A DNA stretch of 63,606 nt from Chthoniobacteraceae bacterium (GCA_037190965.1 JBBCKI010000047.1:1-63606), one strand, 5' to 3'; positions 1 to 55,079 are shown, numbered from the stretch's first letter. Notes: generated by a model from the sequence alone, not told the origin. Made by a program: numbers and translations.

Positions 1-2655
1 TCTGTCGCGGCCTCTCATGAGGAAAAAAGCGAAGCAGAGTCGCTGGCCAGGATGGGAGTCGACCTCGTCTCGGGTGCCATCCTTAGCGCAACAGAAGATC
101 CTGCCCGGGTCTGGTATAGCCAGCCGGGCGCCCTGACAGTATCGAGCACCACGGATCTTCGGAGCAAAACAACCGTTGCCCTTCACTCCGGTGTTCCTGC
201 CAGCTACGACCCGGCCAATACCCCTACCTGGTCAAGTCCAGCGGAACTGAACGTATTGACCTTCCTTTCCCAGCAACCCCTTGTTACCGCAGATCCTGCA
301 ACGGGTAGCGCGATTCCCATGCCACTGCGGTGGGTGTACGTCCGAAAGGATGGTAGCTTTGACTCATCGGATATCCCCAATACCACGAATGCCACCAACC
401 CGCTCATAGGGCGGTTCGCTTTCTGGATGGACGACGAATCGGCCAAGATCAACCTTAATACCGCCTGGAAACGCAATCCGCCTGCGACGGTAATTACCAA
501 CCCTCTTCCTTTGGCTCATCCTTCCCAAGTCAGCCTCAAGGCCCTTTCCGGGTTTACCGAGGCAATGGCCGACCAGCTTCATCAGTTCATTACCCCGTCT
601 CATAACTACACGGACTTGCCTGCCGCGCTTCGTTTTCTCAATTCTCCGGAAGAAATCCGATCCCTCGATCGGATCCATAACACGACAGACTTCAGCTCTG
701 CGTTGATGAAAAGCCGTTTTGAAGTAACCACGCGCAATTCTTCTCCCGAACTTAACGTCTTCAACGAACCGCGGATCGTTCTCACCACGCAGGAAGAGTA
801 TGCCCCGCGTAACGCCGACGGAAGTGTTATGAAGGACAAAGATGGAGTTCCTTACTTTCTCGACATCCTCACAGACAACAAAGCCGAGCCGCGCATTGAC
901 AACGTCGATCAGAATAAGTTGAGCAAGATCATGATGAGACTGATAAAGGATCTGAAGCGGACCGATTGGCCCATGACCTCGGAAGCATCCAGCTTTCATC
1001 AGAAGTATTTTAACAATGATCATGCAACGGCTCAATTTGCCTTGAATATCATTGAATACGTGCGAAGTGCAGAGTCTTCGCAGACCCTCGTCGAACCGAT
1101 TCGCGGCAAGCTGGATGGAACGGGTGCTGCGATGAAATTTATTGGGAATGCCGTCAGTCAGACATCAATCAAAGGGGTTACCCGGAAATTTTTTATAACC
1201 GAAGTTGGTTGCTGGGCGGCGGCCGCCAAGGATACTGAGGGGACATTTAGCGGGCGAACCAAGTTACGATTGATTTTTGAACTCCACCTTCCCAAAAATT
1301 TCGGAGTTCCTGCCATAGACCTCACCAATATTGACGGAAAGCGGATCTATGTCTACCTGTCCGACCTCTTCCTCAATGACCCTAACGTCGTCGTTCGCTT
1401 TATGGATAGCAACGGGGCACTCGTGCCGGCGGGTAACCTCATTCGTTTGGATTCTGCTGAAGTAAGCGGGGGGACTACCCTTGCCGCAGGCGGTTACGCG
1501 AAGTTCGCTTTTACCTTTTATGTGAATGACGTCCCCAATACCTCTTCGATAGGTTATTTTGGGGGGCGAACTGCCCTCGTCCTGGTTGCCGATCCGACGA
1601 TGACGAATAAGTACCTTCAGGATGTCGTCTCGCACCGGATGGAGGTTGCTCCAGTATGGGATAGTGGTTTTACTCTTACTCCGGAAACTACTCGTGAAGA
1701 ACACGAAAAGCAGTTTCCGACCTATCAGATCGGAGACCCAATCCTTAATGGCAATCGCTACAATTGGAAAGATAAGGTTTACCAGCAGTTGGGTAAGCCC
1801 CCTCACGAGAATTTTTACCTGTCTGACCCAACCGGCACGGATCGACAGGATGTTGACGATAATGGTCAGGAGACCAATCTGGGAGTTCGGATGCCGGCTC
1901 CCAAAGGATCCGCTGCCAATCCTGACGGGATCGTTTATTCCGTCGGCGAACTCGGCTTTATCCATACCGGAATTCAGCCCGATGCGGGCGTCCCGGCCTT
2001 GAAGGCGGTTCGTCATCGGACGCTCCATCTTCAGCCCGAAGGAGATCCCAAGAAGGTTCCCGACTGGGCTTTGCTTGACCTGTTCAGGGCACCTCTGAAG
2101 ACCGGCGGCAATGCACAAGGGGTGCTTAGACCGTCCAAGGACGCCATCGCCGGACGAGTCAATATCAACAGCCGGATTGTCCCATTTGGAATGGAAGAGA
2201 GCCAGCGCCCTGCCAAAACCAATGAGTTGGTGCGGAACAATGCCCTTAAGGCTGCCCTGGTGAATGCATCGAAGAATGAAAATGGCGATTCGTTATCCCT
2301 TGAGGATGCCGGAACGATTGCATCAAACATTTACTCCCAGCAACTTGCAGAGGGGGCGGCGGCTTATAGGGCGGCGGGCGTTTCCGGCTACAGTATGCCA
2401 GCGGAGATCGCGCAGATAAAAGGCGTCGCTGACGGAGGGGAATCCAGTGAATTCCTCATTCGCTCCATTATTGATCAACTGAGTGCCCGAGGGAATGTTT
2501 TTACGATCTATAGCGTTGGCCAGGTTCTGAAGCAGACGCCGCGTGGGAGTATTGTTGTCACCTCAGAGCAGCGTTTGAAGAGCAGCGTTGAACGCTACGT
2601 TGATGGGAGTCAAACCAAACTTCGCCAAGTAAGCCTGGAGTCTCTGGTTCCCTAA
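1..2655 (+). CDS. Verru_Chthon cassette protein A-like large pseudopilin (GspK/PilX-like), 5'-truncated by the window edge
   Basis: The frame is open from base 1 (SVAASHEEKSEAESLAR then M at 52), so the true start lies upstream. It shares blocks with the A protein at 46944-50927: SQPG, MPLRWVYV, NPLIGRFAFWMDDESAKINLNTA, SPELNVFNEPRI, PDWALLDLF, AGRVNIN, GNVFTIY, VERY. Confidence 0.85.
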   Translation, partial: SVAASHEEKSEAESLARMGVDLVSGAILSATEDPARVWYSQPGALTVSSTTDLRSKTTVALHSGVPASYDPANTPTWSSPAELNVLTFLSQQPLVTADPATGSAIPMPLRWVYVRKDGSFDSSDIPNTTNATNPLIGRFAFWMDDESAKINLNTAWKRNPPATVITNPLPLAHPSQVSLKALSGFTEAMADQLHQFITPSHNYTDLPAALRFLNSPEEIRSLDRIHNTTDFSSALMKSRFEVTTRNSSPELNVFNEPRIVLTTQEEYAPRNADGSVMKDKDGVPYFLDILTDNKAEPRIDNVDQNKLSKIMMRLIKDLKRTDWPMTSEASSFHQKYFNNDHATAQFALNIIEYVRSAESSQTLVEPIRGKLDGTGAAMKFIGNAVSQTSIKGVTRKFFITEVGCWAAAAKDTEGTFSGRTKLRLIFELHLPKNFGVPAIDLTNIDGKRIYVYLSDLFLNDPNVVVRFMDSNGALVPAGNLIRLDSAEVSGGTTLAAGGYAKFAFTFYVNDVPNTSSIGYFGGRTALVLVADPTMTNKYLQDVVSHRMEVAPVWDSGFTLTPETTREEHEKQFPTYQIGDPILNGNRYNWKDKVYQQLGKPPHENFYLSDPTGTDRQDVDDNGQETNLGVRMPAPKGSAANPDGIVYSVGELGFIHTGIQPDAGVPALKAVRHRTLHLQPEGDPKKVPDWALLDLFRAPLKTGGNAQGVLRPSKDAIAGRVNINSRIVPFGMEESQRPAKTNELVRNNALKAALVNASKNENGDSLSLEDAGTIASNIYSQQLAEGAAAYRAAGVSGYSMPAEIAQIKGVADGGESSEFLIRSIIDQLSARGNVFTIYSVGQVLKQTPRGSIVVTSEQRLKSSVERYVDGSQTKLRQVSLESLVP

Positions 2656-2831
2656 TGCCTATTTGGAAAGAGTTTGTGACGCTATCAATCACTGGCGGAG
2701 AAAGTCGCCGCAACAGTTGCAGAAATGCCGTGCTCCCTTGCTGAGTCTCCCTGCCACCGACAAAATCCTCGCTTCAGAGAAACGCCGCTCTCGGCTGAAT
2801 AAGCAGGCCCCACTACTTGAAGTCACCAATT

Positions 2832-5297
2832 ATGATGGAAATGAAACATACCACCTCAAGATTCACTTCGCTATCCTTTGCTAAACCTTGGCGGAGCCTA
2901 ACGGCAACGTTCATCATCTCTCTGGCGGCGTGGGCTTCGCCGCTGCAAGCCGCAAGTCTCGATACACTAAACGTTGGCATTCTGGCAGGAAGTGCGACAC
3001 AGAAGGAGTTTGATGGCGCTTTCCAAGAATTGAGTTCGAAGCCGGTTATTTACAGCGATGACGCGGAGGGCTGGGAAGCCCTTTTGAAGGATCTCGATAA
3101 GCATGACGTGCTCCTTGGCTCACCCGGATTGACGAATCATCTGCCAAAGGCTGACGGTTCCTCGGAGGCTATTCAAAAGGCAGAGGCTCTCCGCGCTTTC
3201 ATGGAAAGGGGCGGGGCCATCGTCCTGACGGAGGCCGTCCATCCGGCACAGCTTCAGTGGCTTTCGTTATTAAACCCCGCGTTTGAAGTGACGCCGTCTG
3301 TACTTAAAAATGTGCCTGATAAGGCGGCCGTCGAGGAGACGGCCAATCCACCTCACCCTTTTAGGATCCTGCCCGGTAAACTTGGCGATACCGGCAAGCC
3401 AACGATATGCTTTGGCCTAAAGAGCGCAAAAGAGTGGGAGCAAATCGCCCGTTTCGCAGGACAACCGTGCATTATGGTCAAACGATTCGGAAAGGGTTTT
3501 GTTGTTCTATCCACCCTCCGCCACCCCAATGCGGAACTCGTCAAGAATACGGCAACGATGCTACAATTGCAGAGAATGGGGGTATCATTCCGGTCGGTGG
3601 AACTCGACTTTGATGGAGCCAAAAACTTCTTCAACCCCAAGACGATTGCGCCGGGCCGGGGGAAGGTATTTGTTAATTTGAGAAACACATCCACGGAACC
3701 TATCTCCGTCACCGGCGTTCTCCGGATGTCCAACGGGAAGGAAAGCAGGACTGTTACTCGAACAAACACCAATGCCGCTCCCGACAAGGCCCTCAAGATG
3801 GATATCCCCGTGATGGCCGACCTCAGGGGAGATGTCACGCTGGAGGTTGCTCTTATTGACCCTGCCGACAAGTCGGAGATTCCCCTGTTCAGCGATAAAG
3901 CGGAACTCCCTCAATATTCGACCGTGGTGCCTCCTGCCTACCGGGGCATGATCTCGACCGCACGGCGGGATAGGAACATCCACTTCAAGATGCGTTTCTC
4001 CCCCGTTGCGGAGAATGTCACAGGATTGCCGCTGACCTTGACGATTACAGGGCCAGACGGGCGACAGGTGTCCAGAAAGCAGATGTCGGTGCCGTCTGAG
4101 GAGTTTGCAGTCGTCATGGACCTTCCGGAGAATGCGCCAAAGGGCGAATACAAGATCACCGGCGTGACCAAACGCCCCGGAAACATCGAAGAAAAGGCTG
4201 AGGGAACCTTCAAGATTGTCCCTGTCCGCAAAGGGCAGGTCTTTGTCGATCAGGACGGCGTGCTCTTGAAAGACGGTAAGCCATTCTTCCCAATCGGCAT
4301 CTATCACGTCGCAAGTGACCAAATTGATGAAGCCGCCGCGATCGGCTTCAATATGTTCCAGTTATGGGCATGGGATGCTACACCGGAGAATATGAATCGT
4401 TTGGGAGAGAAAGGGATCTCTGTGTTGTGGGAGGGGCAAGCGTGGGGCAGGGCCGTAACGCTCGCGCCCTCAGCGTTGAAAGACAATCAACCTTTTCAGA
4501 AGGAACTGGCTATCCAGCGGGAAATCGCGGCCAATTTCAAGACGCATCCCGCGCTGGATATGTGGTATGTCGCCGACGAACCCTCGCCCACGGCCCTCCC
4601 GGCGTTGAGGATGATCAATAAGACGTGGCACGAGGTCGATGAAGACCATCCTACCTACCTCGTCGCAACAGGCAACTACGGTTACCTTCAGGAGGCATGC
4701 GATGTCCTCGGCATCGACGTCTACCTGGTTTACCGGGGGGACCGGAAGCCCCTTTCAACCATTGCTGATGCAACCGATGATGCATTGCGAGGGGTCGATT
4801 ATCGGAAGCCGGTCATCGCCATCCCTCAGGCATTTGGCAATAACGAGCGCCATCATGAAAAGCCTGAAGACGTCCGCGCAATCTCTTATCTGCATCTGAC
4901 GCATGGCGTAAAAGGGGTTATTTGGTATTGCTGGAAGGAAACCGGGGATAAAACCGGGAATGAAGGCATGGGTTTCCATCCTGAAACCCAGAAGGTCGTC
5001 AAAGAGCTGGTCAGCGAGATCAAAACCTTCGCTCCTGCATTGCTGGAGCCAGGGGTTCGACAGCTCAAGTCGAGCGATGGAAAGGTCCACGCGCTAATCG
5101 CTGGCAGCGATTCCACCGGCAGATACCTCCTGTTCGTCAACAGTGAGGAAACCGCCTCTGATGCAGTGCTTCAGGTTCCGGAACTTTCAGGCAAGAGGCT
5201 CAAAGAACTTTTCGGCACTCCTGCCGCGGAGGTAAGGAACGGCAACCTTCAAATGAAGGTTGCTCCTCTGGCGACGGGGGTCTTCCAAATCAGATAA
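2832..5297 (+). CDS. Secreted multidomain protein with C-terminal glycoside-hydrolase-like TIM barrel
   Basis: Signal-peptide-like N-terminus (..LAAWASPLQA|AS) and beta-rich middle domains. The C-terminal part carries DGVLLKDGKPFFPIGIY, GFN, WYVADEP, DVLGIDVY and HGVKGVIWY, typical of GH-like (beta/alpha)8 barrels. Start is ATG 2832, 2835 or 2841. Confidence 0.65.
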   Translation: MMEMKHTTSRFTSLSFAKPWRSLTATFIISLAAWASPLQAASLDTLNVGILAGSATQKEFDGAFQELSSKPVIYSDDAEGWEALLKDLDKHDVLLGSPGLTNHLPKADGSSEAIQKAEALRAFMERGGAIVLTEAVHPAQLQWLSLLNPAFEVTPSVLKNVPDKAAVEETANPPHPFRILPGKLGDTGKPTICFGLKSAKEWEQIARFAGQPCIMVKRFGKGFVVLSTLRHPNAELVKNTATMLQLQRMGVSFRSVELDFDGAKNFFNPKTIAPGRGKVFVNLRNTSTEPISVTGVLRMSNGKESRTVTRTNTNAAPDKALKMDIPVMADLRGDVTLEVALIDPADKSEIPLFSDKAELPQYSTVVPPAYRGMISTARRDRNIHFKMRFSPVAENVTGLPLTLTITGPDGRQVSRKQMSVPSEEFAVVMDLPENAPKGEYKITGVTKRPGNIEEKAEGTFKIVPVRKGQVFVDQDGVLLKDGKPFFPIGIYHVASDQIDEAAAIGFNMFQLWAWDATPENMNRLGEKGISVLWEGQAWGRAVTLAPSALKDNQPFQKELAIQREIAANFKTHPALDMWYVADEPSPTALPALRMINKTWHEVDEDHPTYLVATGNYGYLQEACDVLGIDVYLVYRGDRKPLSTIADATDDALRGVDYRKPVIAIPQAFGNNERHHEKPEDVRAISYLHLTHGVKGVIWYCWKETGDKTGNEGMGFHPETQKVVKELVSEIKTFAPALLEPGVRQLKSSDGKVHALIAGSDSTGRYLLFVNSEETASDAVLQVPELSGKRLKELFGTPAAEVRNGNLQMKVAPLATGVFQIR

Positions 5298-5514
5298 CTG
5301 GTGGCTAATGGGTGTTGAGCCTCTTCCAATGTCCGCCGATCGCGCAACGACAATGGGTCCAGCGGGATCGGCGGTATATGGATGAACGGGTTCAGGGGCG
5401 TCTCTGCATAGCGGGGCTAGAGATTCAGAGATCGCCTCGCCGCTATTCAGACACCTATGCCCATCCTTTTACTCAACTGCCATTTCCGCCCCTTAGTAAG
5501 TCTTGAACAAATTC

Positions 5515-7398
5515 ATGAAACCAAAAGAGTTCGCATATCTGATCTCCGCTGAATCGATAGTGTTGCTTCCTGGCTTGGAGGTATTGTCCGGCGATCTCCC
5601 CATTGTGCTTGATGGTAATGGTATTCCCATTGAGTTCACCCCTTCCCGCGAAAGGAACGGCTTTCAGGTGGTCCATCAAGGTACACTGGTCAAGATCGCC
5701 TATAGGAGGCCCTGTGATGCTTATCGAGCCCTGGCAAGTCTTTTGGCCGACTTGTGTCCCGTGGGTGGGGAATACGAGCGGGACTGTGCATTCGACTCGC
5801 TGGGAGTTATGGTCGATGTATCACGCAATGCGGTTTTGAAGGTCGATGCGCTCGAAACGGTGCTGCGGCGCTTGGCATTGATGGGGATCAACAGCGTCCA
5901 ACTTTATACCGAGGATGTCTATACCATTCCTGGCGAACCTTTCTTTGGATACGGGCGGGGAGCCTATACTCCGGAGGAACTCCGTGCGATTGACGGGTAT
6001 GGACGCCGCTTGGGAATCGAACTAGTGCCCTGCATTCAAACGCTTGGACACCTCGAGCAGATCCTCCAGTGGCCTGCTTATAGGGACTTGGCGGATACGG
6101 GCTGCGTTCTGTTGGCGGAACATGAGCCGACCTATGCCTTGTTGGAGAAAAAACTTGATCAGGTCTCTTCCTGCTTCTCTAGCCGAAGGATTCACATTGG
6201 GATGGATGAAGCGCACGGTGTAGGGTTGGGGCGATATCGGCAGATTCATGGGGAAAAGAGGGCCTTTGATATTCTGAGCGACCATTTGAAGCGCGTGACG
6301 AGCCTGTGCGCGGAGCGGGGACTGAAGCCAATGATGTGGAGCGATATGTTCTTTCGCCTAGGCTCCGTGAATAACGACTATTACGATGTAAAATCCGAGG
6401 TGCCTGCTGAAGTGATTGAGCATATTCCACGGGAGACGGCTATGGTGTATTGGGACTACTACCACGAGGAACCGTCGTTTTATGAAGAATGGATTGCGCG
6501 GCATCGCCGAATGGGCAAAGAGCCGATATTGGCCACCGGAGCCTGGACGTGGGGGCGCTTCTGGACCTGCATGGACCGGGTGATTCGAACAAACTCCGCT
6601 GGAATGGCAGCCGCCCGGAAGCAGGGGCTGCGTGATGTCTTCATTACCGCCTGGGGAGACGATGGCGCCGAGTGTCATCCCGCCTCCATGTTCGCCAGCA
6701 TCCAGTATTTTGCCGAATTTGCCTATAACGAAACGGCAGATCCGGACACGCTTGAAAAGCTATTCGCGGTTGGGTCTGGCGGCATATATTCAGGCTACGT
6801 AGAAGCGTCTGGAGTGGATACGATACCACGTATCAAGGGGTGCCCGTTGCCGGAGGCGAATTTCGGAAAATGGATTCTTTGGCACGATCCGATTCTGGGC
6901 TTCCTGGCGCCCCAAATTCCGGAGGAACTGCCGCTGCATTACGGAACGCACTCGTCGAAACTGGCTTCGCTGGCGCAGCACGACCGTTCTGGAGCCCTCG
7001 ATTTCCCGGCGTTGCTCTCGCGCGTGCTGGCAGGTAAGGCACAGTTACATCTCGAAGTTCGCGCCCATTATCAAAGTGGCGATACGGCCGCTATGCGTCT
7101 GTTGCTTGACGAAGCGCTTGAGCCGACTCTTGAGGCGATGACTGCGCTGTGGGATCTCCACCAGGAGGTCTGGAGCCAGTGGTATAAGCCGTTTGGGTGG
7201 GAGGTGATTGAAAGCCGTTACGCTACAGTATGCGCACGGCTTCGGCGCCTTGGCAAGATGATGAGCGATTACCTGAAAGATCCGACCATTCGCTATGAAG
7301 AGTTCGAGTATGAACTGCAGCGCGTCTATCCCGAAGAGAGTTACCCTCAGATGTATTTTACTCATAAGAGAACAGTAACGGCGAGCGCGAGTTTTTGA
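5515..7398 (+). CDS. GH20 beta-N-acetylhexosaminidase (GcnA/HEXDC-like), no signal peptide
   Basis: GVMVDVSRNAV, LYTED, PCIQTLGHLE, the catalytic HIGMDEA motif, MWSDM, VYWDYY and TAWGDDGAE. Confidence 0.9.
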   Translation: MKPKEFAYLISAESIVLLPGLEVLSGDLPIVLDGNGIPIEFTPSRERNGFQVVHQGTLVKIAYRRPCDAYRALASLLADLCPVGGEYERDCAFDSLGVMVDVSRNAVLKVDALETVLRRLALMGINSVQLYTEDVYTIPGEPFFGYGRGAYTPEELRAIDGYGRRLGIELVPCIQTLGHLEQILQWPAYRDLADTGCVLLAEHEPTYALLEKKLDQVSSCFSSRRIHIGMDEAHGVGLGRYRQIHGEKRAFDILSDHLKRVTSLCAERGLKPMMWSDMFFRLGSVNNDYYDVKSEVPAEVIEHIPRETAMVYWDYYHEEPSFYEEWIARHRRMGKEPILATGAWTWGRFWTCMDRVIRTNSAGMAAARKQGLRDVFITAWGDDGAECHPASMFASIQYFAEFAYNETADPDTLEKLFAVGSGGIYSGYVEASGVDTIPRIKGCPLPEANFGKWILWHDPILGFLAPQIPEELPLHYGTHSSKLASLAQHDRSGALDFPALLSRVLAGKAQLHLEVRAHYQSGDTAAMRLLLDEALEPTLEAMTALWDLHQEVWSQWYKPFGWEVIESRYATVCARLRRLGKMMSDYLKDPTIRYEEFEYELQRVYPEESYPQMYFTHKRTVTASASF

Positions 7399-10713: not shown

Positions 10714-10771
10714 GGTTCGAGCACCATACATCCGATTGCCGGGGGGCAAACCTCTTTTTGACGAAGAGTCA

Positions 10772-12384: not shown

Positions 12385-12388
12385 TCCT

Positions 12389-13285: not shown

Positions 13286-13316
13286 GGCGATAACGTTTCG
13301 ATTCCCCCCCACCATC

Positions 13317-14873: not shown

Positions 14874-14885
14874 CCCCACCGGATC

Positions 14886-15647: not shown

Positions 15648-15654
15648 CTCCCGG

Positions 15655-15673
15655 CTTTATAGATAAAGTGGCG
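15655..15673 (+). promoter_or_regulatory. Motif-1 copy (CTTTATAGATAAAGTGGCG), palindromic core CTTTAT-AG-ATAAAG
   Basis: Intergenic, 90 bp before the ATG at 15745; aligns with the 10772 and 28003 copies. Confidence 0.6.
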
Positions 15674-15744
15674 CGTCCGTTTACTTGGGAGGAGAGCGGG
15701 CGCACCTTACATTTGCTTCTCCCTTCTTGTTTGCTTTGTATACG

Positions 15745-16935: not shown

Positions 16936-16954
16936 AACGCTCTCGAATCGTTCA

Positions 16955-18064: not shown

Positions 18065-18068
18065 TCAC

Positions 18069-38844: not shown

Positions 38845-38870
38845 ACCGCAAGTGATTTCTCTTCAATACC

Positions 38871-39488: not shown

Positions 39489-39642
39489 CGGAAATCCTGA
39501 CTTTCTTTTAGGCCCGGAGCGGCCGGGCATTCTCGCCTCTCCGGAAAAAACCAAATCCCCCTTGTGTTCTTTTGCGGGCCTAACCTCCGAGAGAGGTTGA
39601 GCGTGCGATGGATGCGCGACGGCCTTTATTGATCCAATTACG

Positions 39643-41646: not shown

Positions 41647-41648
41647 GA

Positions 41649-42776: not shown

Positions 42777-42817
42777 ATCGCCCCCCTATACCAAGACACT
42801 CAAAGAACCCGCCTATC

Positions 42818-46317: not shown

Positions 46318-46947
46318 TCAGGGTCGGTAAAGTTGGGTGTAGCCGTTCCAGGGGTCGATCTGCAACGTGGCAAAATTGGGAGGAAGATCCGTGCGATTGT
46401 CGCCCGCGTTGGCGTGGTGCAGGGTCACAAACCATTGCTGGCCTGCCACGGAGAGATCCGCAGAGCCGTCGGAGCGGTAAGTGAACGCGCGGGCTTCATA
46501 GTTGGTTCCAATTCCGGGAAGCGAGATCTGGGGATCGTTGGAAGTCCACTGCTTCACTCGCGTCGGCCCGAGAAGGGGGGAAAGCGTGGCGCTGGAATCG
46601 AGGATGATCAGCCCCGGCAGGCGGTGGAGTTTCCCTAGTGCTTTCGGAGGCCCATTCTCGACGATCTCAAACGCCTGCACCCCCTGGAAATACGAGGCGG
46701 TTACTCCCGAGGCCGGAGCAGTAAACTTGTAGAAGCGAACCTCCACGGCCCGGTTCCTGGCCAGAGTGGCTTGCCGGGCCAGGTGAAGCTGGTCCGCGAT
46801 AATCTGCGCGCCTTGCGTCAGCTGGAAGCCTTGCAGGGTGGAATTAAGGGCGGGAACGGCGGCAACGAGGAGGATCCCGATGATCGCCAGTACCATCAGG
46901 ATCTCGATCAGTGTAAAGCCGAAGCGGAGGGGGCGGCGGCGCTTCAT
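46318..46947 (-). CDS. Verru_Chthon cassette protein D (GspH/FimT-like prepilin)
   Basis: G|FTLIEIL, LARQATLARNRAVEVRFYK, PPNFATLQIDPWNG..YRP; ATGA overlap with gene A. Confidence 0.9.
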   Translation of the reverse strand: MKRRRPLRFGFTLIEILMVLAIIGILLVAAVPALNSTLQGFQLTQGAQIIADQLHLARQATLARNRAVEVRFYKFTAPASGVTASYFQGVQAFEIVENGPPKALGKLHRLPGLIILDSSATLSPLLGPTRVKQWTSNDPQISLPGIGTNYEARAFTYRSDGSADLSVAGQQWFVTLHHANAGDNRTDLPPNFATLQIDPWNGYTQLYRP

Positions 46948-49900
46948 GGGATGAAGGTGGTCGATTTCAAGGTGCGGATTTTGTAAAAATCCTCGGCGGT
47001 GGCGGAGGGGTCCGTTGCGAAATCGGGGAGGTTTGAGCTGCCGGTGCCGATATAGCGTTCCACCGTCGTAGCCCCGCGATATTCCCCTCCCACCTGGTCT
47101 CTTCCTTCCACCCATTGGTTCACCGGTGTGCTTGGGACTTTCTTGAGCGCCTGCACGCGCACGTGAATGGTATAGGTATTCGACTTGGTAGTCAGCCGGG
47201 GATAGAGATCGCCATAAGGTCTTTCTCTCACGTTGTCGCCGGTAAGCTGGAAGCCCTTGCCGCCGGGGCCGCCGGTTTTCCACCAGGTCGCAACCGTGCT
47301 ATAGGTCGGTTCGGTAATTGTCGAAGCATAGTTCTTGCCGGCAATCTTTCTGGGCACCAGGTAAATCCCGCAAATTTCGGAGGCCGACCGAAAGATATCT
47401 CCCGCTTGGAAGCGGCGCTCGAAGCCTTCAAGGGTTCCGCCGCTTTCTTTTGGGTTGATCTCATAGCGGAGTTCGAACGGATGAGCCAACCCCTCCTTGT
47501 AGGCGCGTTCCGAACCGGAGACGGCGGTCGAGGCCGTCGTGGGAATCGCCATCATGCGCGTTGATTTGAGCACGGCCTGCACCCCCGTGCTGCGGGTGAT
47601 ATAGGTAAAAGGCATGATCTGGTAGTTCATGTTGATCTTCCCCGCCGTGGAGAAGGGTTCGCTGATTGCATAGGGCTCCACAATAGGCATGTGGAAAAGA
47701 TCGAGCATCAGGTGATCAGGCGGCGTGGTATAAGGCGGGCCGGAGGCGGGATTTCCGAGGCCCGGATGACCGGAACCTGCCGCCGGATTGGCGGCGAAAA
47801 GCAACGTTTGCCATGGTTTCTGGTTGTCGGCATTGGCGGGATCGATGCCCGTCGGGAGCGAGCCGAACATAACGGCGGAGGAGACTTGCCGATTGGGGGA
47901 GAAGGTGACTTCGGTGGTGGCCCGGTAATCCGATCCTTGGTTGTAGCGATTGAGCCCTCGTGAATAGTAGCCCCCGGTCATGGTGCCGCTTGTCACGGCA
48001 CCGCCGATGCTGGTGAAATTGCTGGCGGTATCGCTGTTGCCCTCATCGGGTTTGTTGACGTAGGGGCCGTCTTCGATCGTGCCGGTCATGTTATCCCAGT
48101 CACCGGGCGCTCCGTTGGAATTGAGCGCGGCAGTCAGCCCTTTTGGGACGGCGGGATTGCTTCCAATCCGGTATTCGCCTGCGCCGCTTCCCATGTAGCC
48201 CGAGAGCAGCGTTTGCGGGATGAGGAAGCCGGAGACCGTCGCCGTGCTCATGCGGAGATTGGTGTCGGCGCTCGCATGGGAGTCGATGTCATAAGAGTTT
48301 CCGAGGCCCTCCGCAGTGGCATCGTAGCCAAACTGGGGGTCGGAGCTGTAAGCGCCATCCCGCAAGCTGTGGGAAAAGCGAATCGCCGGGTTTTGATACC
48401 CCTCCGAAGGCTGAAAGTAGGTGCTGGGAACCACCTTGAGCGCCGCATAGACCCGGAGATCCCCTCCGGCGGGACCGTCGGGCCGCGCCTCGACACTGCG
48501 GACGACGTCCTTGGTGTCGTCCTGCCTCATGATCAGCCGAAGGCGGAACTCCTTGTCCGTATTTTTATTGGGCGCGGCGGCGCTGCCGAGGCGCGTGTTG
48601 AAGTCATGGAAGCCTGCCCCCGGCTGGGTCGTCGGAATGGGGAGCCCTTTGGCTTCGGGGAAGTGCATATGGATTGTCTGCAGTAGCGCACCCGGGGATG
48701 CGCCGGCCCCGGCATGAATTTGGATAGTGATGTCGCCGCCGCTGAAGTCGAACGTGGTCGCGTCCATCGGCACTTCCACCGCGCTGCTCACAAAAGGATA
48801 GTGGATCTTGGGGTCCGGCGTGGCTCCCGAGGCGGGAATCGATTTTGTGCCATCGGTTCCATCGACTCCCAGGCCCACGTTGGCGGCATAGCGAAAGGCC
48901 GCTTTCAGGCCAAGAAAGGCGGTCGTATTCCCTGCGGTGTTGTTATTGTACCCCGAAAAGCCAACCCTGCCTGTCACCCAGTTATCGGCAGGCTCCGGAA
49001 AGCCAAGCGGTGCATAGACCTGACTGGGGGCCTGCCCCCCGTCGGTATTCACGCCGATCCGGAACGGAGCCGCGCTTGGCGGGTTGAGGCCGCTGATCAC
49101 GTAATGAACATTCGGACTCCACGTGGGAAGCCCCGGGGAAGGGGTGAACGGTTCGAGAATAATCAAAGCCCGGATCTGCGGTGGCAGGGGCGCGTTATTT
49201 TTATCGATCGTAGGATTGGAACGATAGAAGACGACCGCGGCTTCCGTGATGGTGGCAAAGCGGCCGAAGCCCCGTGTTCCATTCCCCGGCTCCAAAGGAA
49301 CGACCTGCCCTTCTCCCGGGTCGCCCTGTTTTGGGGCATAGTTGTAGGAAGGATCTCCCGGGGCGATCGGAGTGCCGTACGAGTTGATGCCACTGCGCAT
49401 CATGTCGAGCATCTCGGTGAGCACTTGTTTGCGCGTGTTCGGATACTTCGCGTCGAATCGTCCTCCAAGGCCGGGAATGGATTGAGAGGTGAGCCGGTCG
49501 AGGTAGCCGTAAAGCTGCTGGTTGCGCGAGACGTTGTTCCAGTCCATGGCCGGGTCCTGGCTGGAGGAGGGCTGGCTCGAACCGTAGGCGCTGTACCGCT
49601 GGAAATAGTATGGCATTCCCCCAATTTCGGAGCAGAACGCGATCAGCCGGTCTTTGGCATTGCGCTCCGTTTTATTGCTCTGGAGAGGCCACAGGGTCAT
49701 TCTCGGCTGGCCGAAGAGATTGATCTCCGGGGCCCGGCTTTGGGCGGTGATGAAAAATTTCGCTTTCTGCAGAACCGTATGATCGATGGCCCCGAGATTC
49801 GTCTCGCGGAGGCTTGGGTCGGCGGTGGTGGCTTTGAAGAGGAGTTCGTCGGTGGACGCGTAGAGGCGATCCCCGTCGGGTTCGATCGGGCTGGAGAAGC

Positions 49901-50927
49901 CGCTGGCCGCGTTGTTAATCGTGCCACCCTCCGTGCCGCCATGCCGGATGCGCGGAGCGAGATCGTAATAGGTTTTGAGCGTGGTGCCGGAGGGCAGGAG
50001 CGGGCCGAAGACGGTGCTGAGGCTGGTCATCGCCGGATGCCCCGGATATCGCTGGAACTCGTTTTGCGCCGGGATGGAGGTGGAGAACTTCTGCTCCGTG
50101 GCGGTATTCGCCCAGGGGCGATCCCAGAAGGTTCCCTCCGAGGCGGTATTGAGGTTGACCTTGCTGGTTTCGTCGTCCGTCCAGAAAGCGATGCGGCCGA
50201 CGATCGGGTTTGCTTTTGAAGGAACGTTGACCCCAAAGGTCACGACGTTGTTGCTGCTGCTCACGGGAACGGCGAGCTTGCCATCCTGCAAGACGTAGAG
50301 CCAGCGCAGCGGCATCGGCAGCCGTTGATCATCGGCTGCACCGCCCGGAAGCACAACGCCGCCCACAGCGGCCTTGTAGTCGAACCCTTCCACGCTCTGG
50401 GCTGCATTGGCGGCCTTTGCGCGCGGGTCGACGACCGGAAAGTAGAGGTTGCCCTGTTCGCGCCGCACGGGGCTGTTGAGATCGGTAAACAGGCCCGCCT
50501 TGGCGGCGGTGTTCCAATCCGGATCGGGCAGTTCCGCGGCAAGATCGAAGGAGGTGCCGCTGACGATCAACGGGTTGGAAGAATAGAGCTTATAGTATTT
50601 GCCTGGCTTGCCGTCGGTGCCGTAGGTGCGAATCATCCCGGGTTGGGAAGCCCAGGCGAGCAGACCGCTTTGATCCTTGCCCCGGGTCGCTTCGGTAATC
50701 TGGCCAATGGCGAGTTGCACTGCGGAATCGGCGAGCTGTTTGACGGCGCCTTCGTTCGAATAGTTTGCCGCCGAGTTCGATTCGGTGGCGATGCTGGCAA
50801 AAAAAGCAACGATGAGAACCGAAATGAGGACCAGAAAGGAAAGCACGATGACGAGCACGACGCCGCGACGGCGGGCTCCGGCCAAGCCGGCTTGCGCGAA
50901 GGATGAACGGTATGGGAAAGGGCTCAT
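46944..50927 (-). CDS. Verru_Chthon cassette protein A (large GspK/PilX-like protein)
   Basis: RRG|VVLVIVL (no Glu5), WASQPGMIRTY, NPIVGRIAFWTDDETSKVNLNTASEG, QNEFQRYPGHPA, FSPNRQVSSAVMFGSLP, EPYAISEPFSTAGKINMN, YPRLTTKSNTY. Confidence 0.92.
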   Translation of the reverse strand: MSPFPYRSSFAQAGLAGARRRGVVLVIVLSFLVLISVLIVAFFASIATESNSAANYSNEGAVKQLADSAVQLAIGQITEATRGKDQSGLLAWASQPGMIRTYGTDGKPGKYYKLYSSNPLIVSGTSFDLAAELPDPDWNTAAKAGLFTDLNSPVRREQGNLYFPVVDPRAKAANAAQSVEGFDYKAAVGGVVLPGGAADDQRLPMPLRWLYVLQDGKLAVPVSSSNNVVTFGVNVPSKANPIVGRIAFWTDDETSKVNLNTASEGTFWDRPWANTATEQKFSTSIPAQNEFQRYPGHPAMTSLSTVFGPLLPSGTTLKTYYDLAPRIRHGGTEGGTINNAASGFSSPIEPDGDRLYASTDELLFKATTADPSLRETNLGAIDHTVLQKAKFFITAQSRAPEINLFGQPRMTLWPLQSNKTERNAKDRLIAFCSEIGGMPYYFQRYSAYGSSQPSSSQDPAMDWNNVSRNQQLYGYLDRLTSQSIPGLGGRFDAKYPNTRKQVLTEMLDMMRSGINSYGTPIAPGDPSYNYAPKQGDPGEGQVVPLEPGNGTRGFGRFATITEAAVVFYRSNPTIDKNNAPLPPQIRALIILEPFTPSPGLPTWSPNVHYVISGLNPPSAAPFRIGVNTDGGQAPSQVYAPLGFPEPADNWVTGRVGFSGYNNNTAGNTTAFLGLKAAFRYAANVGLGVDGTDGTKSIPASGATPDPKIHYPFVSSAVEVPMDATTFDFSGGDITIQIHAGAGASPGALLQTIHMHFPEAKGLPIPTTQPGAGFHDFNTRLGSAAAPNKNTDKEFRLRLIMRQDDTKDVVRSVEARPDGPAGGDLRVYAALKVVPSTYFQPSEGYQNPAIRFSHSLRDGAYSSDPQFGYDATAEGLGNSYDIDSHASADTNLRMSTATVSGFLIPQTLLSGYMGSGAGEYRIGSNPAVPKGLTAALNSNGAPGDWDNMTGTIEDGPYVNKPDEGNSDTASNFTSIGGAVTSGTMTGGYYSRGLNRYNQGSDYRATTEVTFSPNRQVSSAVMFGSLPTGIDPANADNQKPWQTLLFAANPAAGSGHPGLGNPASGPPYTTPPDHLMLDLFHMPIVEPYAISEPFSTAGKINMNYQIMPFTYITRSTGVQAVLKSTRMMAIPTTASTAVSGSERAYKEGLAHPFELRYEINPKESGGTLEGFERRFQAGDIFRSASEICGIYLVPRKIAGKNYASTITEPTYSTVATWWKTGGPGGKGFQLTGDNVRERPYGDLYPRLTTKSNTYTIHVRVQALKKVPSTPVNQWVEGRDQVGGEYRGATTVERYIGTGSSNLPDFATDPSATAEDFYKIRTLKSTTFIP

Positions 50928-50928
50928 G

Positions 50929-52029
50929 CTAGCTTTGAGGCTCGGTGCTCCATTTCGCACCTTGGATCTGGACGTTGGTGGAGAAAACACGGTAGCCGAT
51001 GCGTCTGGAGATCAGCGTTCCCTCCAGGGTCTGGAGGTCCTCTTTAAAGCGGGCTGGTTCCTGAAACAGGGCGCTGAGCCCGAGATCGGGCATGGTAGCA
51101 TTCTCGTGCAGGCGTCGCGCCGAGGTGTCGTCGATGACGACCATCGTGACCTGCACGACGGGGGGAAGCTGGTTGCGGGAGTTGAGCCGGGCATCTGACT
51201 TTTCGACCGTGGAGTCGTAGAGATACCCCGGGGAAAGCGCCACACCGCCCGGATCCTGATCCGGCGTCAGGCGAGGGAGAATGACCAGCGCGATCACGTT
51301 TTCGGCAAGCACATGGACCGGGCGGTCCGCGCCGCTTTTCTTCAGCGGATCAGTGAACCACTGGCGGCCTGTATAGCTTGCGCTGAGCGGCTTTTTGTTT
51401 TGGTCGAGGCCCGAGGTATGGCGATAAATCGAAAGCGCATTGGTCGGCTCAATCAATTCACACAGGCGGAAGCGGTATTGCGGGGCGAGAAGCGCCGGGG
51501 TGATGATGCCGGGGCGGTAGGCCAGGTCATCGCCGAATTCGATGAAGTAGCCGAACATATTGAGCAGCGATTGAAGGCCCGCAGAATTGGCCGTCCCGGG
51601 TTCCGAAGCACCCAAGGGGGCCTGGAAGAAAAGACCGTGGCCCAGCCAGGTTTTTCCGGCGGGCGCAGTTCCCGCCAGTTCCGCCATCGGCCCGCTCAGA
51701 AAGCGAAGTTCCGATTGGCGAACGTAGGCGGCGGGAGCCAGGGGGTTATCATAGTCCAGGTAAGTATTCAGTGTCGCTTTGCCGAGGCGGCGCGTGATGG
51801 ATTCGAAAGCTCCGCGTCCTTTCTGGATCTGGTCGATTTTCCCGCTGGTGGAACGCCACAGCGTGGTGACCTGGTTTGTCATCGACAGGAGCACGATCAA
51901 AAGCATGGCTACAACCGCCAGAGAGACGAGCATCTCCACCAGCGTGAAAGCGGCGATGCGGGAGCTGACATCCCACGGGGGGCGATCACTCCCCCCGCGA
52001 TGCGGCGTAGGCGAAGTACCTTGAAACAT
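50929..52029 (-). CDS. Verru_Chthon cassette protein C (GspJ/PilW-like prepilin)
   Basis: A|FTLVEML, AFESITRRLGKATLNTY, YVRQSELRF, FFQAPLG, LAENVIAL, NQLPPVVQVTMV, AKWS. Start uncertain. Confidence 0.9.
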   Translation of the reverse strand: MFQGTSPTPHRGGSDRPPWDVSSRIAAFTLVEMLVSLAVVAMLLIVLLSMTNQVTTLWRSTSGKIDQIQKGRGAFESITRRLGKATLNTYLDYDNPLAPAAYVRQSELRFLSGPMAELAGTAPAGKTWLGHGLFFQAPLGASEPGTANSAGLQSLLNMFGYFIEFGDDLAYRPGIITPALLAPQYRFRLCELIEPTNALSIYRHTSGLDQNKKPLSASYTGRQWFTDPLKKSGADRPVHVLAENVIALVILPRLTPDQDPGGVALSPGYLYDSTVEKSDARLNSRNQLPPVVQVTMVVIDDTSARRLHENATMPDLGLSALFQEPARFKEDLQTLEGTLISRRIGYRVFSTNVQIQGAKWSTEPQS

Positions 52030-52573
52030 AGATTCCTTGGGATGGTTGCTCGACGATTCTGCCGAGCGAATCGATCTGCAAAGGCTTGCGCCCGGGATTC
52101 CGGACGATCTCGATGACAATGGTGGCCATACCCGAGAGATCGCCGCCCAGGACCGGCGAGGGAACCTGTGCCACCGTGTTCACTTCGTAGAGGACCTGCG
52201 ACATCTCCTCTGGGGTGAGCGGGTCGAGAGAAGTCCCTTTCACGGTCCCCTGTTCATCAAAATAACGAAGCGGCTGCTTCTCCTGAAGTTTGAGGAACCC
52301 CGTCTGCCGCACGTCGGAGGCAACCTGCTGCAGAATTTGCGATTTGATGGAATTTTCCATCGCGCCGCGAAAGTTGGTCAGCCCCACGGGTACCAGTCCG
52401 AGGACGCTGACAAAGGCGAAGGCCACGATGCCGAGAGCGAGCGTGACTTCTACGAGGCTGAACGCGCGATGGCCACGGAGCTTGCGCTGGCGACGGCGGG
52501 AGACGACCGCAAGCGGCCGCAAGAATCGGAGGGGAGTCTTCACGGGACGGGGGGAACTTCGACTACGCTCCAT
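51986..52573 (-). CDS. Verru_Chthon cassette protein B (GspI/PilV-like prepilin)
   Basis: A|FSLVEVTLALGIVAFAF..LVPVGL, SQILQQ, RYFDEQG. Confidence 0.9.
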   Translation of the reverse strand: MERSRSSPRPVKTPLRFLRPLAVVSRRRQRKLRGHRAFSLVEVTLALGIVAFAFVSVLGLVPVGLTNFRGAMENSIKSQILQQVASDVRQTGFLKLQEKQPLRYFDEQGTVKGTSLDPLTPEEMSQVLYEVNTVAQVPSPVLGGDLSGMATIVIEIVRNPGRKPLQIDSLGRIVEQPSQGIYVSRYFAYAASRGE

Positions 52574-52611: not shown

Positions 52612-52900
52612 CAAAAAACTTTCGAAATTTTGCGAAATTTTGCAAAGCTTCGAAAACCTCCAAAGAAAGGAAGGCAAACGAGGGAATATGATCTCGGCAG
52701 TCCCTATGATTGAGGATTCGATATGGGCTGATTTTCAGGAAGTTTCTGAGAAACCGGACGCGATTGGCATCGCTCCAAGCGAGGCTGTCGCGGAAGATCC
52801 TGAGGGCATTTTTTGCCTCGCTGCCGCTGCAGGCTAGCCGGCTTCGCAGGTTGATTTTCGAAAACGAGACGAAAATTCTGATTGCAATATTTCGGAAATA
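52612..52900. promoter_or_regulatory. Motif-2 operator-like arrays in the divergent cassette/SSS spacer
   Basis: TTTCGAAATTTTGCGAAATTTTGCAAAGCTTCGAAAA (52620-52656); TTTTCGAAAA palindrome (52855-52864); TATTTC-G-GAAATA (52888-52900). Confidence 0.65.
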
Positions 52901-53021: not shown

Positions 53022-55079
53022 ATGAATCTGACTCTCCTCGATTTTGTGGTGATCGCGGTGCCGCTCATCCTAGTGATCGGTGTCTCCCTCTTCATGAAAC
53101 GGTATATGAGGAGCGTGGCTGATTTTCTGGCAGCCAACCGTTGCGCGGGACGTTATCTGATCTGCACTGCGATGGACGCCACCGGCGGAGGGGTGATCCT
53201 GCTGCTCATTAGCATGGAGGTCTTCTCGAAGGTCGGCTTTTCGCTCGTCTTCTGGAGTAAATCGGCGGAGGTCGTGACTTTTTTTCTGGGGATGCTCGGG
53301 TTGGTGACCTACCGCTTTCGCGAGACGCGGGCACTTACTTTTCACCAGTTCTTCGAGATCCGTTACAGCAAAGGGATCCGGGTTTTTGCCAGCGGGCTCA
53401 ATGTCTTTTCGGGGTTATTCAATTTTGGCGTCCAGCCTGCCGTCGGGGCGCGGTTCTTCGTCTACTTCTGCGGAATGCCGGAAGTCTTCGAATTGGCAGG
53501 AATGAAGCTGCCGACCTTTGCGGTGGTGATGGTGATCCTCATGGGGGTCTCGCTTTTTTTCGCCCTGACGGGCGGGCAAATCAGCGTGATGGTGACGGAC
53601 TGTCTGGAGGGTCTGATCTCCTCGCTTTTCTACCTGGTCGTCGCGATCTTCCTGATCTGCACGCTCACGGGGACCGAGGTTCGCGAGGCCCTGCTTTCCG
53701 GAGCCGCGGGGACGTCCTATGTCGACCCCTTCGACATTGGCGCCCGTACTGACTTCAACGGCTGGTATGTCATCTTCGGTATTTTTCTGAGCGTCTATTT
53801 CTATCGAGGCAACGCGTGGACGCAGGGCTTCGCGGCGGCGGCGAAAACGGCTCATGAGGGACGCATGGCGCAGATTCTCGGGAATTGGCGCGGCATGAGT
53901 TACGCCGCAATGGGGACGCTCGTCTCTATCGCAGCCTTCACGGTTCTGACTCATCCCGACTTTTCCGCGCAGCAGGCCGTCGTGGAGGAAGGGGTGCGGG
54001 GGATTAGCGATCAGGCAATGCAAGGGCAACTGCGGCTGCCAATGGCGCTGGGGCTTTTGCTCGCTCCGGGCGTCAAGGGGGCGTTCTGCGCGGTGCTCCT
54101 CTTCGGGGTCATCGCTTCACAGGGGGTGCAGCTTCACGGCTACGGCTCGACAATTCTCCAGGACGTGGTGCTTCCGATCCGGAAACGGCCGCTCGATGCC
54201 AAGAGTCATATCCGGTGGTTGCGGCTGACGGTGATGGGTGTGGCGGCGTTCGCTTGCACATTCAGCTATTTCTTCAAGCCGGTGGAGTATCTGGTAATGG
54301 TGGTGACCCTGATCGGGGCGATCTACCTTGGCGGCATTGGCCTGGTTGCCTGGGGGGGCTTGTATTGGAATCGTGGAACCACGGCGGGGGCGTGGGTGGC
54401 GATGGGGATCGGCGCTGTGTTTGGCGTGCTTTTCAATCTTGTTCAGCAGCTATGGAAACCGCTGCATCCCACCATGCTTTCATGGTTTGGCGTTGAAAGC
54501 CCGGTGGGGCGTTTCCTGGCGGCATACCCTGATGCCAGCCCCTTGAACGGCCAGCAGTTCACTGTCGTGACGGCTGTGACGGCTGGGACGGCATATGTGA
54601 TCGTTTCGCTGCTCACCTCTCGCAAGCCTTTCAATATGGATGCAATGCTTCATCGTGGCGCCTATCGATTGGAGCCGGAGGAAGGGGCCGCCGCCATTCC
54701 GGCCAAGAGATCGTGGTTTGCGCGTCTGGTAAATATTGACGAGCAGTTTACGCGGGGCGACAAGGTGCTGACCGTCGCGACGGTCATCTGGACACTTCTC
54801 TGGAAGGTGGTGGCGCTGGGCGTGCTGCTCTGGACATTATTTGTGGGCCGCCTTTCGCCCGACTGGTGGTTCGACTATTCGATGATTACCGGCGTCTACG
54901 TGACGTTGGGGGTTGGCTGTATCACGACTGTCTGGTTTCTTTTTGGGGCAAGCCGCGATCTGAAGGATCTCTTTGCGGCCCTGCGCGCGGCAAAACGAAG
55001 TGACGCCGACGACGGAACGGTCATCGAAAACCTTCATGCCGAGGAAGCAACATCCAAAGAGCCTGCGACGGGTGCGTGA
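53022..55079 (+). CDS. Sodium:solute symporter (SSS family)
   Basis: DFLAANRCAGRY, RFRETRALTFHQFFEIRYS, GGQISVMVTD, GGLYW and many transmembrane segments. Confidence 0.9.
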   Translation: MNLTLLDFVVIAVPLILVIGVSLFMKRYMRSVADFLAANRCAGRYLICTAMDATGGGVILLLISMEVFSKVGFSLVFWSKSAEVVTFFLGMLGLVTYRFRETRALTFHQFFEIRYSKGIRVFASGLNVFSGLFNFGVQPAVGARFFVYFCGMPEVFELAGMKLPTFAVVMVILMGVSLFFALTGGQISVMVTDCLEGLISSLFYLVVAIFLICTLTGTEVREALLSGAAGTSYVDPFDIGARTDFNGWYVIFGIFLSVYFYRGNAWTQGFAAAAKTAHEGRMAQILGNWRGMSYAAMGTLVSIAAFTVLTHPDFSAQQAVVEEGVRGISDQAMQGQLRLPMALGLLLAPGVKGAFCAVLLFGVIASQGVQLHGYGSTILQDVVLPIRKRPLDAKSHIRWLRLTVMGVAAFACTFSYFFKPVEYLVMVVTLIGAIYLGGIGLVAWGGLYWNRGTTAGAWVAMGIGAVFGVLFNLVQQLWKPLHPTMLSWFGVESPVGRFLAAYPDASPLNGQQFTVVTAVTAGTAYVIVSLLTSRKPFNMDAMLHRGAYRLEPEEGAAAIPAKRSWFARLVNIDEQFTRGDKVLTVATVIWTLLWKVVALGVLLWTLFVGRLSPDWWFDYSMITGVYVTLGVGCITTVWFLFGASRDLKDLFAALRAAKRSDADDGTVIENLHAEEATSKEPATGA

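Follow-up and report, generated by a model that had tools for sequence, protein, structure and literature searches.

The closest described counterparts of the genes reported here are the GspH-I-J-K tip of the type II secretion system (T2SS), represented by structures from enterotoxigenic Escherichia coli (3CI0) and P. aeruginosa (XcpVWX, 5VTM), and the minor-pilin sets of type IV pilus machines. In the parts of the sources cited here, several minor-pilin sets prime one type IV pilus machine in Myxococcus xanthus (clusters 1-3; PMC7541494), Synechocystis has two core minor-pilin sets, and a cyanobacterial PilX with a built-in capping domain replaces PilY1 (both PMC13759059); authors describing such sets speculate that the substrate recognised differs from tip to tip. 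That one machine can work with alternative minor-pilin sets is already established in these two organisms. NCBIfam catalogues the Verru_Chthon families A-D (TIGR02600, TIGR02598, TIGR02599 and TIGR02596) without an assigned function, and a literature search of limited scope returned no paper on these names or accessions. Here we describe three Verru_Chthon-type cassettes in a 63,606-nucleotide (nt) window from a Chthoniobacteraceae bacterium (GCA_037190965.1, JBBCKI010000047.1:1-63606). They are divergent GspH-I-J-K-type sets, not members of the curated Gsp families. The window is the entire contig C47 of a 4.21-Mb genome (73 contigs, estimated 97% complete), and the public sequencing runs that contain it are soil-metagenome DNA only.

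How large glycans pass the outer membrane without SusCD in Verrucomicrobia and Planctomycetes is a standing question. Labelled polysaccharides build up in the periplasm of these bacteria and bind pilus-like fibres. As far as the cited parts of the sources go, gold-labelled dextran has been seen on pilus-like fibres of Planctomycetes (PMC5394234), and a type IV-like pilus locus of Akkermansiaceae is tied to mucin and fucoidan uptake (PMC13174399). These systems share with the arrangement considered here the absence of SusCD and a tie between pilus-like filaments and polysaccharide binding or uptake. Unlike it, the Akkermansia mucin-utilization locus MUL2 (PMC13174399, PMC12418764) is set apart by its description, which in the parts cited gives a PilM-like protein and an archaeal-type pilin and no GspHIJK-like quartet. 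Bacteroidota polysaccharide utilization loci likewise bring together a regulator, binding proteins, hydrolases and a transporter for each substrate, but the window has neither a SusC-type or TonB-dependent receptor nor SusD, and the whole genome has one TonB-dependent receptor (PF00593, C62:57294-58607) and no SusD (PF07980). This is the single such receptor of a genome rich in glycoside hydrolases (GHs). The prediction made from the sequence before this analysis (the original prediction) had noted the lack of TonB-dependent receptors and ABC transporters in the window, and our scan of 50 candidate open reading frames against NCBIfam and Pfam agrees, with zero matches to either.

Cassette genes had been placed at 1-2655, 19121-24672 and 46318-52573, and NCBIfam profiles for Verru_Chthon A-D match at all three places:

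1..2655, + strand: cassette 1 protein A, clade II type; 884 codons, 5' end cut; TIGR02600 271.3 bits (cut-off 332.3)
19121..19852, + strand: cassette 2 D, GspH-like; TIGR02596 35.9 bits (cut-off 70), TIGR01708 34.3 bits (cut-off 80), Pfam GspH E 0.004; GFTLIE motif
19830..20360, + strand: cassette 2 B, GspI-like; TIGR02598 36.5 bits (cut-off 51.4); AFSLVE motif
20264..21157, + strand: cassette 2 C, GspJ-like; TIGR02599 44 bits (cut-off 256.5); AFTLVE motif
21163..24672, + strand: cassette 2 A, clade III, predicted giant GspK-like cap; TIGR02600 24.4 bits (cut-off 332.3); N-terminus RRGVALVIVL; variable at residues ~600-850
24608..25333, + strand: cassette 2 fifth gene, E, a small secreted protein with a signal peptide; conserved after A in clade III
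46318..47283, - strand: cassette 3 D, likely start near 46947; TIGR02596 127.4 bits (cut-off 70); GFTLIE motif
46944..50990, - strand: cassette 3 A, canonical clade I; TIGR02600 1177.2 bits (cut-off 332.3); N-terminus RRGVVLVIVL
50929..52119, - strand: cassette 3 C; TIGR02599 312.4 bits (cut-off 256.5)
51986..52573, - strand: cassette 3 B; TIGR02598 53.8 bits (cut-off 51.4)

Only cassette 3 (46318-52573, - strand, order B-C-A-D) passes the curated Verru_Chthon cut-offs with all four proteins. Cassette 2 (19121-24672, + strand, order D-B-C-A) matches the same four families far below cut-off and over N-terminal parts only; judged by its sequence and the NCBIfam threshold, it is best classed as a related but separate large clade outside the Verru_Chthon family. 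The fifth gene is conserved after A in this set, and cassette 2 therefore spans 19121-25333. Cassette 1 (1-2655) matches the same models through its A gene alone, which the contig start cuts (TIGR02600 position 32 aligns at nt 7), B, C and D being off the contig; by blastp this A groups with the A proteins of cassettes K7, K8, K10 and K11 of the genome. Contig C38, which carries B and C at its end, was considered as the partner of the cut A and rejected, because the two do not overlap in sequence and belong to different clade types.

Prepilin motifs of the form G/A-F-T/S-L-[VI]-E, with Glu5, are present in D, B and C, which also match the N_methyl models (Pfam and TIGR02532). Protein A begins with RRGVALVIVL, a GspK/PilX-type N-terminus without Glu5, and a missing Glu5 is given as the mark of GspK and PilX subunits in the cited part of PMC7541494. 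An AlphaFold2 model of cassette-2 A (alignment of 79 sequences; pLDDT 88.2, pTM 0.89) found its best fold match among 48,161 PDB chains in GspK (3ci0_K; Z 8.6, rmsd 4.5, 256 of 280 residues aligned), followed by XcpX (5vtm_X; Z 8.2, 231 of 259 aligned) and the giant-insert competence pilin ComZ (Z 7.7), lower ranks being other pilins. The fold alignment covers A residues 29-1150, so that the predicted pilin fold is built from both ends of the protein and split by an insertion of ~900 residues. Comparison by hhalign of profiles of the D, B and C paralogues with the T2SS proteins of the genome's own contig C13 gave probabilities of 96.8 for D with GspH, 95.5 for B with GspI and 92.4 for C with GspJ, and lower values for mismatched D, B and C pairings (80.6, 54.8 and 84.2). 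This signal comes mostly from the N-terminal helix, with the exception of B and GspI, which align over 116 columns.

Other searches were less informative. Foldseek with the whole A model against the PDB gave no match at E<=1e-3, its weak rows including three XcpX/GspK chains; PDB sequence searches with A gave none, whether the query was the one sequence or a profile of 79 rows; and those with C, B and D gave similarity at the level of the N-terminal helix only. D has only the sub-threshold GspH matches listed above. Pfam searches for PilY1 on the cassette proteins of the window and their neighbours (E<=0.5 or 1e-5) were negative, and PilX_N matched the A protein of K11 weakly (E 0.26). The predicted pseudopilin tip finds backing in the prepilin motifs of D, B and C, in their profile matches to the T2SS proteins of contig C13 and in the N-terminus and modelled fold of A; none of the Gsp family models reaches its threshold. 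It is very improbable that these proteins are not filament subunits at all, with A a membrane-anchored surface or periplasmic protein that has only its anchor in common with pilins, and the other three proteins accessory anchors: the missed GspI, GspJ and GspK models and the helix-level PDB similarity would fit such a protein, whereas a co-linear quartet of prepilin-type genes ordered like H-I-J-K, a modelled A fold that covers >90% of GspK and the full-length alignment of B with a GspI-like protein speak against it.

The cassettes therefore resemble the T2SS tip in having four prepilin-type genes, a K-like subunit without Glu5, the H-I-J-K order of cassette 2 and, in the predicted model, a GspK fold in A. 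They are unlike it in that A is 3-4.5 times longer, with the ~900-residue insertion and a hypervariable stretch, and in that there are ~17 cassettes per genome, away from assembly genes and many of them inside sugar operons. The Myxococcus and Synechocystis sets are similar as interchangeable four-subunit priming or tip sets on a shared machine, but number two or three, not ~17, and serve motility, competence and adhesion, not LacI-type-regulated glycan operons; nor does a PilY1 gene accompany the sets here. ComZ, at the tip of the Thermus thermophilus competence pilus (6QVI), is likewise a pilin fold with a very large insert at the end of an uptake filament, but it takes DNA as its ligand, comes as a single gene and aligns with A over a short stretch (120 residues).

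Profile searches of all contigs with TIGR02600, TIGR02599, TIGR02598 and TIGR02596 gave ~17 cassette sets in the genome, 14 of them complete four-gene sets and 3 at contig ends. All-versus-all blastp divides the A proteins into three clades, one member of each being in the window: clade I, the canonical type (1190-1340 aa), clade II (810-1060 aa) and clade III (1010-1160 aa), the last matching TIGR02600 at the N-terminus only. Gene E is conserved between genomes, blastp linking K12, K14 and K15 with X96, X98 and X100 of genome G141 (E 1e-3 to 1e-34). Of 1.84 billion cluster representatives, 1993 match cassette-2 A at E<=1e-3. Within the family, 78 of 80 sampled genomes, five of the same genus included, gave no ortholog of it at E<=1e-60 among the best 9 candidates per genome, and the other two gave A matches at ~35% identity. 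TIGR02600 at E<=1e-20 had 0 matches among the best 4 candidates per genome in a 120-genome sample of the phylum, a result of little weight at that depth. The cassettes probably turn over quickly.

That the filament machine is encoded elsewhere, as had been predicted, holds in this genome, where 4-5 assembly machines all lie outside the cassettes. They comprise 4 platform genes, 4-5 secretins, 5 GspE/PilB-type ATPases and 4 shorter ATPases, which we read as PilT-like from their length and coverage. Genes of these three kinds are absent from every cassette and from the neighbourhood of 16 of the 17, the closest assembly gene being a GspE-type gene 5.4 kb from K13. Cassette proteins account for 38 of the 71 prepilin-motif proteins of the genome, and the majority of the machine loci come without a minor-pilin set. 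The numbers (~17 sets versus 4-5 machines) are consistent with many tips for few machines. The canonical T2SS operon of the genome, at C13:28390-36181, reads gspG-H-I-J-K, one gene, gspM, one gene, gspD, with a GspK of 293 aa and a secretin that weakly matches Amuc_1098_fam; GspE/GspF-type genes lie apart from it at C3:83.7-88.6 kb, with a GspG-like pilin.

We compared the genes around cassettes with control stretches. The flank set held genes with their midpoint <=8 kb from a cassette edge (168 genes, 31 flanks, 17 cassettes), the control set 201 genes from 32 random 8-kb stretches drawn with a fixed seed; genes were called with a simple codon-usage caller (3361 genome-wide) and assigned by Pfam at E<=1e-6. 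Carbohydrate-active enzymes (CAZymes) were counted strictly, as GH, carbohydrate esterase and carbohydrate-binding module (CBM) families, DUF4838, GxGYxYP, BNR_2 and fucosidase, with LamG, GDSL esterases and glycosyltransferases excluded. CAZyme genes make up 21/168 of the flanks and 4/201 of the controls, the latter conservatively including 2 beta-helix proteins (odds ratio 7.0, p=8.7e-5). Without the three window cassettes the values are 15/136 and 4/201 (p=5.5e-4), and at least one CAZyme is found in 15/31 flanks and 4/32 controls (p=0.0025). None of the other families is singly significant (LacI-type, 7 vs 3; GFO, 7 vs 5; SSS, 2 vs 0; PfkB, 2 vs 0; p 0.2-0.4). Enrichment near cassettes thus extends to CAZymes in this genome and not to SSS or LacI genes, and the shared parts list of the original prediction consists of families that are present, but common in the genome and not individually enriched.

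Same-strand runs join a cassette to a CAZyme gene at 6/16 cassettes with gaps <=150 nt and at 8/16 with gaps <=300 nt. The idea that each cassette is wired into a different sugar module is best borne out by cassette 2, which sits mid-way in a 14-gene run (11029-27923 at gaps <=150 nt, reaching 30569 at gaps <=300 nt) and less so by cassette 3, which forms its own five-gene operon (45187-52543) convergent on the module-2 sugar genes listed below, or by the cassette 1 fragment. Among the genes of the cassette-2 run are those for a NanA-like lyase, an SSS symporter, a pair of BNR sialidase-like proteins and a SASA protein of the sialate-esterase type; the run is divergent from two LacI genes and looks like a nonulosonic-acid glycan operon.

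Replication in three other genomes, with TIGR02598 as the marker (13 cassettes, 137 flank genes, 170 control genes) and families classed on the fly (AXE1, GCE, BD-FAE, CBM9, GH5, GH31, GH57, GH85), gave mixed results:

G141 (other family, same order): CAZymes 8/41 in flanks vs 1/57 in controls, p=0.0037
G126 (same family): 4/73 vs 3/81, p=0.71
G128 (same family): 0/23 vs 4/32, p=0.13
Pooled (three genomes): 12/137 vs 8/170, p=0.17

Cassettes are therefore enriched beside CAZymes in the window's genome and in G141, and the enrichment was not reproduced in G126 or G128, where 7 of 9 cassettes belong to clade I, one to clade II and one is divergent. The link between cassettes and glycan loci is real in some genomes and clades, and not general.

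These data bear on a further explanation, in which the cassettes encode general-purpose pilus tips (for adhesion, motility, or contact with DNA or prey) with no glycan role, and are close to CAZymes through shared flexible regions. It would be favoured by the result in G126 and G128, by the 78 of 80 family genomes that gave no ortholog of cassette-2 A within the search given above, by integrase, transposase and RHS genes beside K2, K4 and K10, and by controls that take in core housekeeping regions, so that the contrast is inflated. We nevertheless regard it as distinctly unlikely: K9, K10, K11, K12 and K15 are tightly embedded on the same strand, with gaps of a few to ~100 nt, the enrichment survives removal of the window and recurs in G141, and an operator-like palindrome is common to cassette 3 and the LacI3 gene.

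Three further arrangements were seen around cassettes. K4 is followed immediately downstream (C4:65674-71504) by integrase, SUKH immunity-type and RHS-repeat genes, an arrangement that fits cassettes in flexible regions. DUF4838 genes (GH-like, 650-860 aa) directly adjoin the clade-I cassettes K2, K3 and K5, and one is near K10, often with GFO/IDH/MocA alongside (C24:8288-10864, C29:142306-144639, C50:9843-12167, C44:14653-16596); this suggests that cassette and DUF4838 gene were duplicated as one unit. In G128, a clade-I cassette at ~1.35 Mb of contig C2 (L092/L093) stands between two PATR-repeat giants of ~3000 and >2600 aa.

The palindromes of the window are as follows (no strand):

10935..10950: palindrome CGTATCTAAAGATACG, candidate operator, single copy, upstream of the long cassette-2 operon
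36743..36758: perfect palindrome AAATTTTCGAAAATTT, candidate operator, 39 nt upstream of the LacI3 start
52616..52866: LacI3-site-related palindromes AAACTTTCGAAATTTT (52616), TTTGCGAAATTTTGCAAA (52629) and GATTTTCGAAAACG (52853), in the divergent promoter region of cassette 3 and an SSS-like gene

With <=2 mismatches allowed, the window has 3 copies of the 14-mer where 0.24 would be expected, a count reached in 0/100 shuffles, and exact TTTCGAAA occurs 4 times, 3 of them within the LacI3 and cassette-3/SSS intergenic regions. We infer that cassette 3 may be co-regulated by LacI3 through these candidate operators. The palindrome CGTATCTAAAGATACG on the side of the two tandem LacI genes has no second copy in the window, including near cassettes 1 and 2. 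The near-palindrome AAATTTCGAAAATT stands ~20 nt from six contig ends (C18:20, C39:20, C52:21, C62:16, C10:126200, C50:70194) and appears to belong to a repeated element that breaks the assembly.

In the role that we propose, D, B, C and A would be extra minor pseudopilins, likely forming alternative tip (priming) complexes for a T2SS or type IV filament machine encoded elsewhere, in sets presumably co-transcribed and co-regulated with sugar genes. B, C and A would come together in the manner of GspI-J-K to prime a short filament on the machine that the sets share, and the variable middle of A would be displayed at its tip, giving each filament a locus-specific ligand. Each tip is likely tailored to the substrate of its own operon. 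With the polymer as the ligand, glycan would be held or reeled in at the secretin, near the secreted exo-enzymes and PEP-CTERM surface proteins of the locus, and the products would enter through the SSS symporter. Capture of polymer by a giant variable cap, on alternative tips for a shared machine, is the reading to which we incline, tentatively. The giant hypervariable cap (identity 6-17% and gaps 29-66% among 78 homologues at residues 600-850), its ComZ-like architecture, a genome with one TonB-dependent receptor and no SusD, and the precedents from the Planctomycetes-Verrucomicrobia-Chlamydiae (PVC) group speak for it. The bolder version, in which each glycan operon of bacteria without SusCD and with hardly any TonB-dependent receptors brings its own tip, and the cap is the substrate-specific receptor on a fibre that retracts and pulls polysaccharide through the shared secretin into the periplasm, is improbable. 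If it is true, pili would here be the counterpart of SusCD, and the 'selfish' route of glycan uptake long sought in the PVC group would have been found.

The same tips on a T2SS could instead select cargo, a pseudopilus piston pushing the locus's own secreted enzymes through the secretin: the BNR sialidase-like proteins, SASA, the LamG and CBM proteins, a 667-aa protein and perhaps the PEP-CTERM proteins. GspK and XcpX, both T2SS tip subunits, are the best fold matches of A, the D-B-C-A order of cassette 2 mirrors H-I-J-K of the genome's T2SS operon, several neighbouring enzymes have signal peptides, and the position of the G126 and G128 cassettes outside glycan loci would suit a general cargo adaptor. 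In the cited parts of the literature, GspK is proposed to contact T2SS substrates (PMC7541494), and a pulG-like pseudopilin of Verruconatronum, with 67 homologues, lies in an alginate-induced cluster for which the authors propose T2SS export of alginases (PMC13274419). Conversely, no T2SS is known to need a GspK of 800-1350 aa, the giant variable cap resembles ligand-binding tips of surface pili (ComZ, and PilX with its built-in capping domain as described in the cited part of PMC13759059), and a canonical HIJK set is already present in the genome. We hold export to be rather unlikely. Should tips select T2SS cargo, this too would be new: an exchange of the pseudopilus tip would direct the secretion system to other cargo.

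A number of points weigh against polymer capture by tips of glycan operons. The Z of 8.6 barely exceeds the usual best Z of unmatched models, and the GspI, GspJ and GspK models of Pfam and NCBIfam fall below threshold, with none on A, B or C. The closest structural relatives of A are T2SS (export) subunits, not adhesins, and the data agree just as well with export of the enzymes of the locus. Folded alone, the A domain 470-780 (pLDDT 76) matches only generic Ig/FN3-like beta-sandwiches (best Z 5.3, none >=8), which is why no lectin or CBM assignment is made, and a look-up of this part in the ESM Atlas returned unnamed clusters only; such a predicted generic fold would speak neither for nor against glycan binding. 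Of the role first predicted, then, tip-like sets near CAZymes stand, and glycan binding or import is unsupported. In the genome, cassette 3 is outside the transcription unit of the sugar genes, cassette 1 is only a fragment, and the occurrence of AAATTTCGAAAATT at contig ends weakens a LacI-operator reading of the motif genome-wide. Across genomes, there is no enrichment in G126 and G128 together (4/96 vs 7/113), where clade-I cassettes stand amid housekeeping genes (glutamate synthase, PFOR, MoxR/VWA, DnaJ), and in the pooled replicates 6/13 loci vs 6/13 controls contain one CAZyme or more. These counts depend on gene calls from a simple caller and on manual tallies of Pfam matches.

New in this work are the placement of A, by its predicted structure, as a giant GspK-like cap, the three A clades, the fifth gene of clade III, the copy number set against that of machines, the embedding in operons, the shared palindrome and the mixed replication. 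A catalogued but unstudied cassette, in at least some genomes within sugar-regulated operons, thereby offers specific genes, together with a candidate operator and a variable domain, for further work. The negative replicate matters as well: the glycan link depends on clade and genome, and a general claim of a 'pilus PUL' needs phylogenetic control.

Beyond the cassettes, Pfam and NCBIfam confirm the predicted parts (LacI, SSS, LamG, CBM4_9, GFO/IDH/MocA, PfkB and hydrolases) in the following neighbours:

2817..5297, + strand: secreted 826-aa protein with a signal-peptide-like N-terminus, weakly GH42/GH2-TIM-barrel-like (GH42 E 5.8e-5, GH2_C E 0.033)
5503..7398, + strand: GH20 hexosaminidase-like protein, no signal peptide (Glyco_H_20C_C 1.1e-35, Glyco_hydro_20 7.2e-11)
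8591..10749, - strand: two tandem LacI regulators (8591-9643 and 9640-10749; LacI + Peripla_BP_3), divergent from the cassette-2 operon
10837..19097, + strand: upstream half of the cassette-2 operon (same strand, gaps <=150 nt): FAD oxidoreductase (PF12831), DHDPS/NanA-like lyase, SSS (13152-14873), LamG protein (14886-15647), two BNR_2 proteins and a nucleoside-hydrolase-like protein; signal peptides on the LamG and both BNR proteins
25351..30569, + strand: downstream half of the cassette-2 operon: ribokinase (PfkB, 25351-26304), SASA esterase, PATR/PEP-CTERM protein and GFO/IDH/MocA (29562-30569)
30598..35568, - strand: GH2 and GH38 enzymes, no signal peptides (Pfam, N-termini)
35660..36703, - strand: LacI3, the module 2 regulator (LacI, Peripla_BP_3)
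37063..45165, + strand: module 2 genes: PATR/PEP-CTERM protein, CBM4_9 protein (38871-39488), secreted 667-aa protein, GFO/IDH/MocA (41613-42776), DUF455-like protein and PfkB (44182-45165)
45187..46311, - strand: 374-aa protein, weakly oligogalacturonate-lyase-like (sub-threshold Pectate_lyase22, E 1.9e-4); fifth gene of the cassette 3 operon, 6 nt after D
53022..55079, + strand: SSS-like transporter, divergent from cassette 3; weak (Pfam SSF E 4.4e-6, 26.3 bits, cut-off 22.8)

The hydrolases and esterase of the window are thus GH20, two BNR_2, SASA, GH2 and GH38. Their description as secreted fits some of them, both BNR proteins for example, whereas GH2, GH38 and GH20 are probably cytoplasmic because they lack signal peptides. 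Both PATR proteins end in IPEPGT, a hydrophobic stretch and an Arg-rich tail, which we take to be of the PEP-CTERM type. PATR/PEP-CTERM proteins are present in flanks and controls alike and so are not cassette-specific partners.

The two tandem BNR_2 sialidase-like paralogues (15685-18064) have near-identical mature N-terminal sequences and are likely a recent tandem duplication. The remainder of the window (55159-63606) is a [NiFe]-hydrogenase cluster in the order NifU-like, DUF5947, DUF6084, a 447-aa protein, HycI-type maturation protease, DUF6893, small subunit, large subunit; the enzyme may be an H2 oxidiser of the high-affinity soil type.

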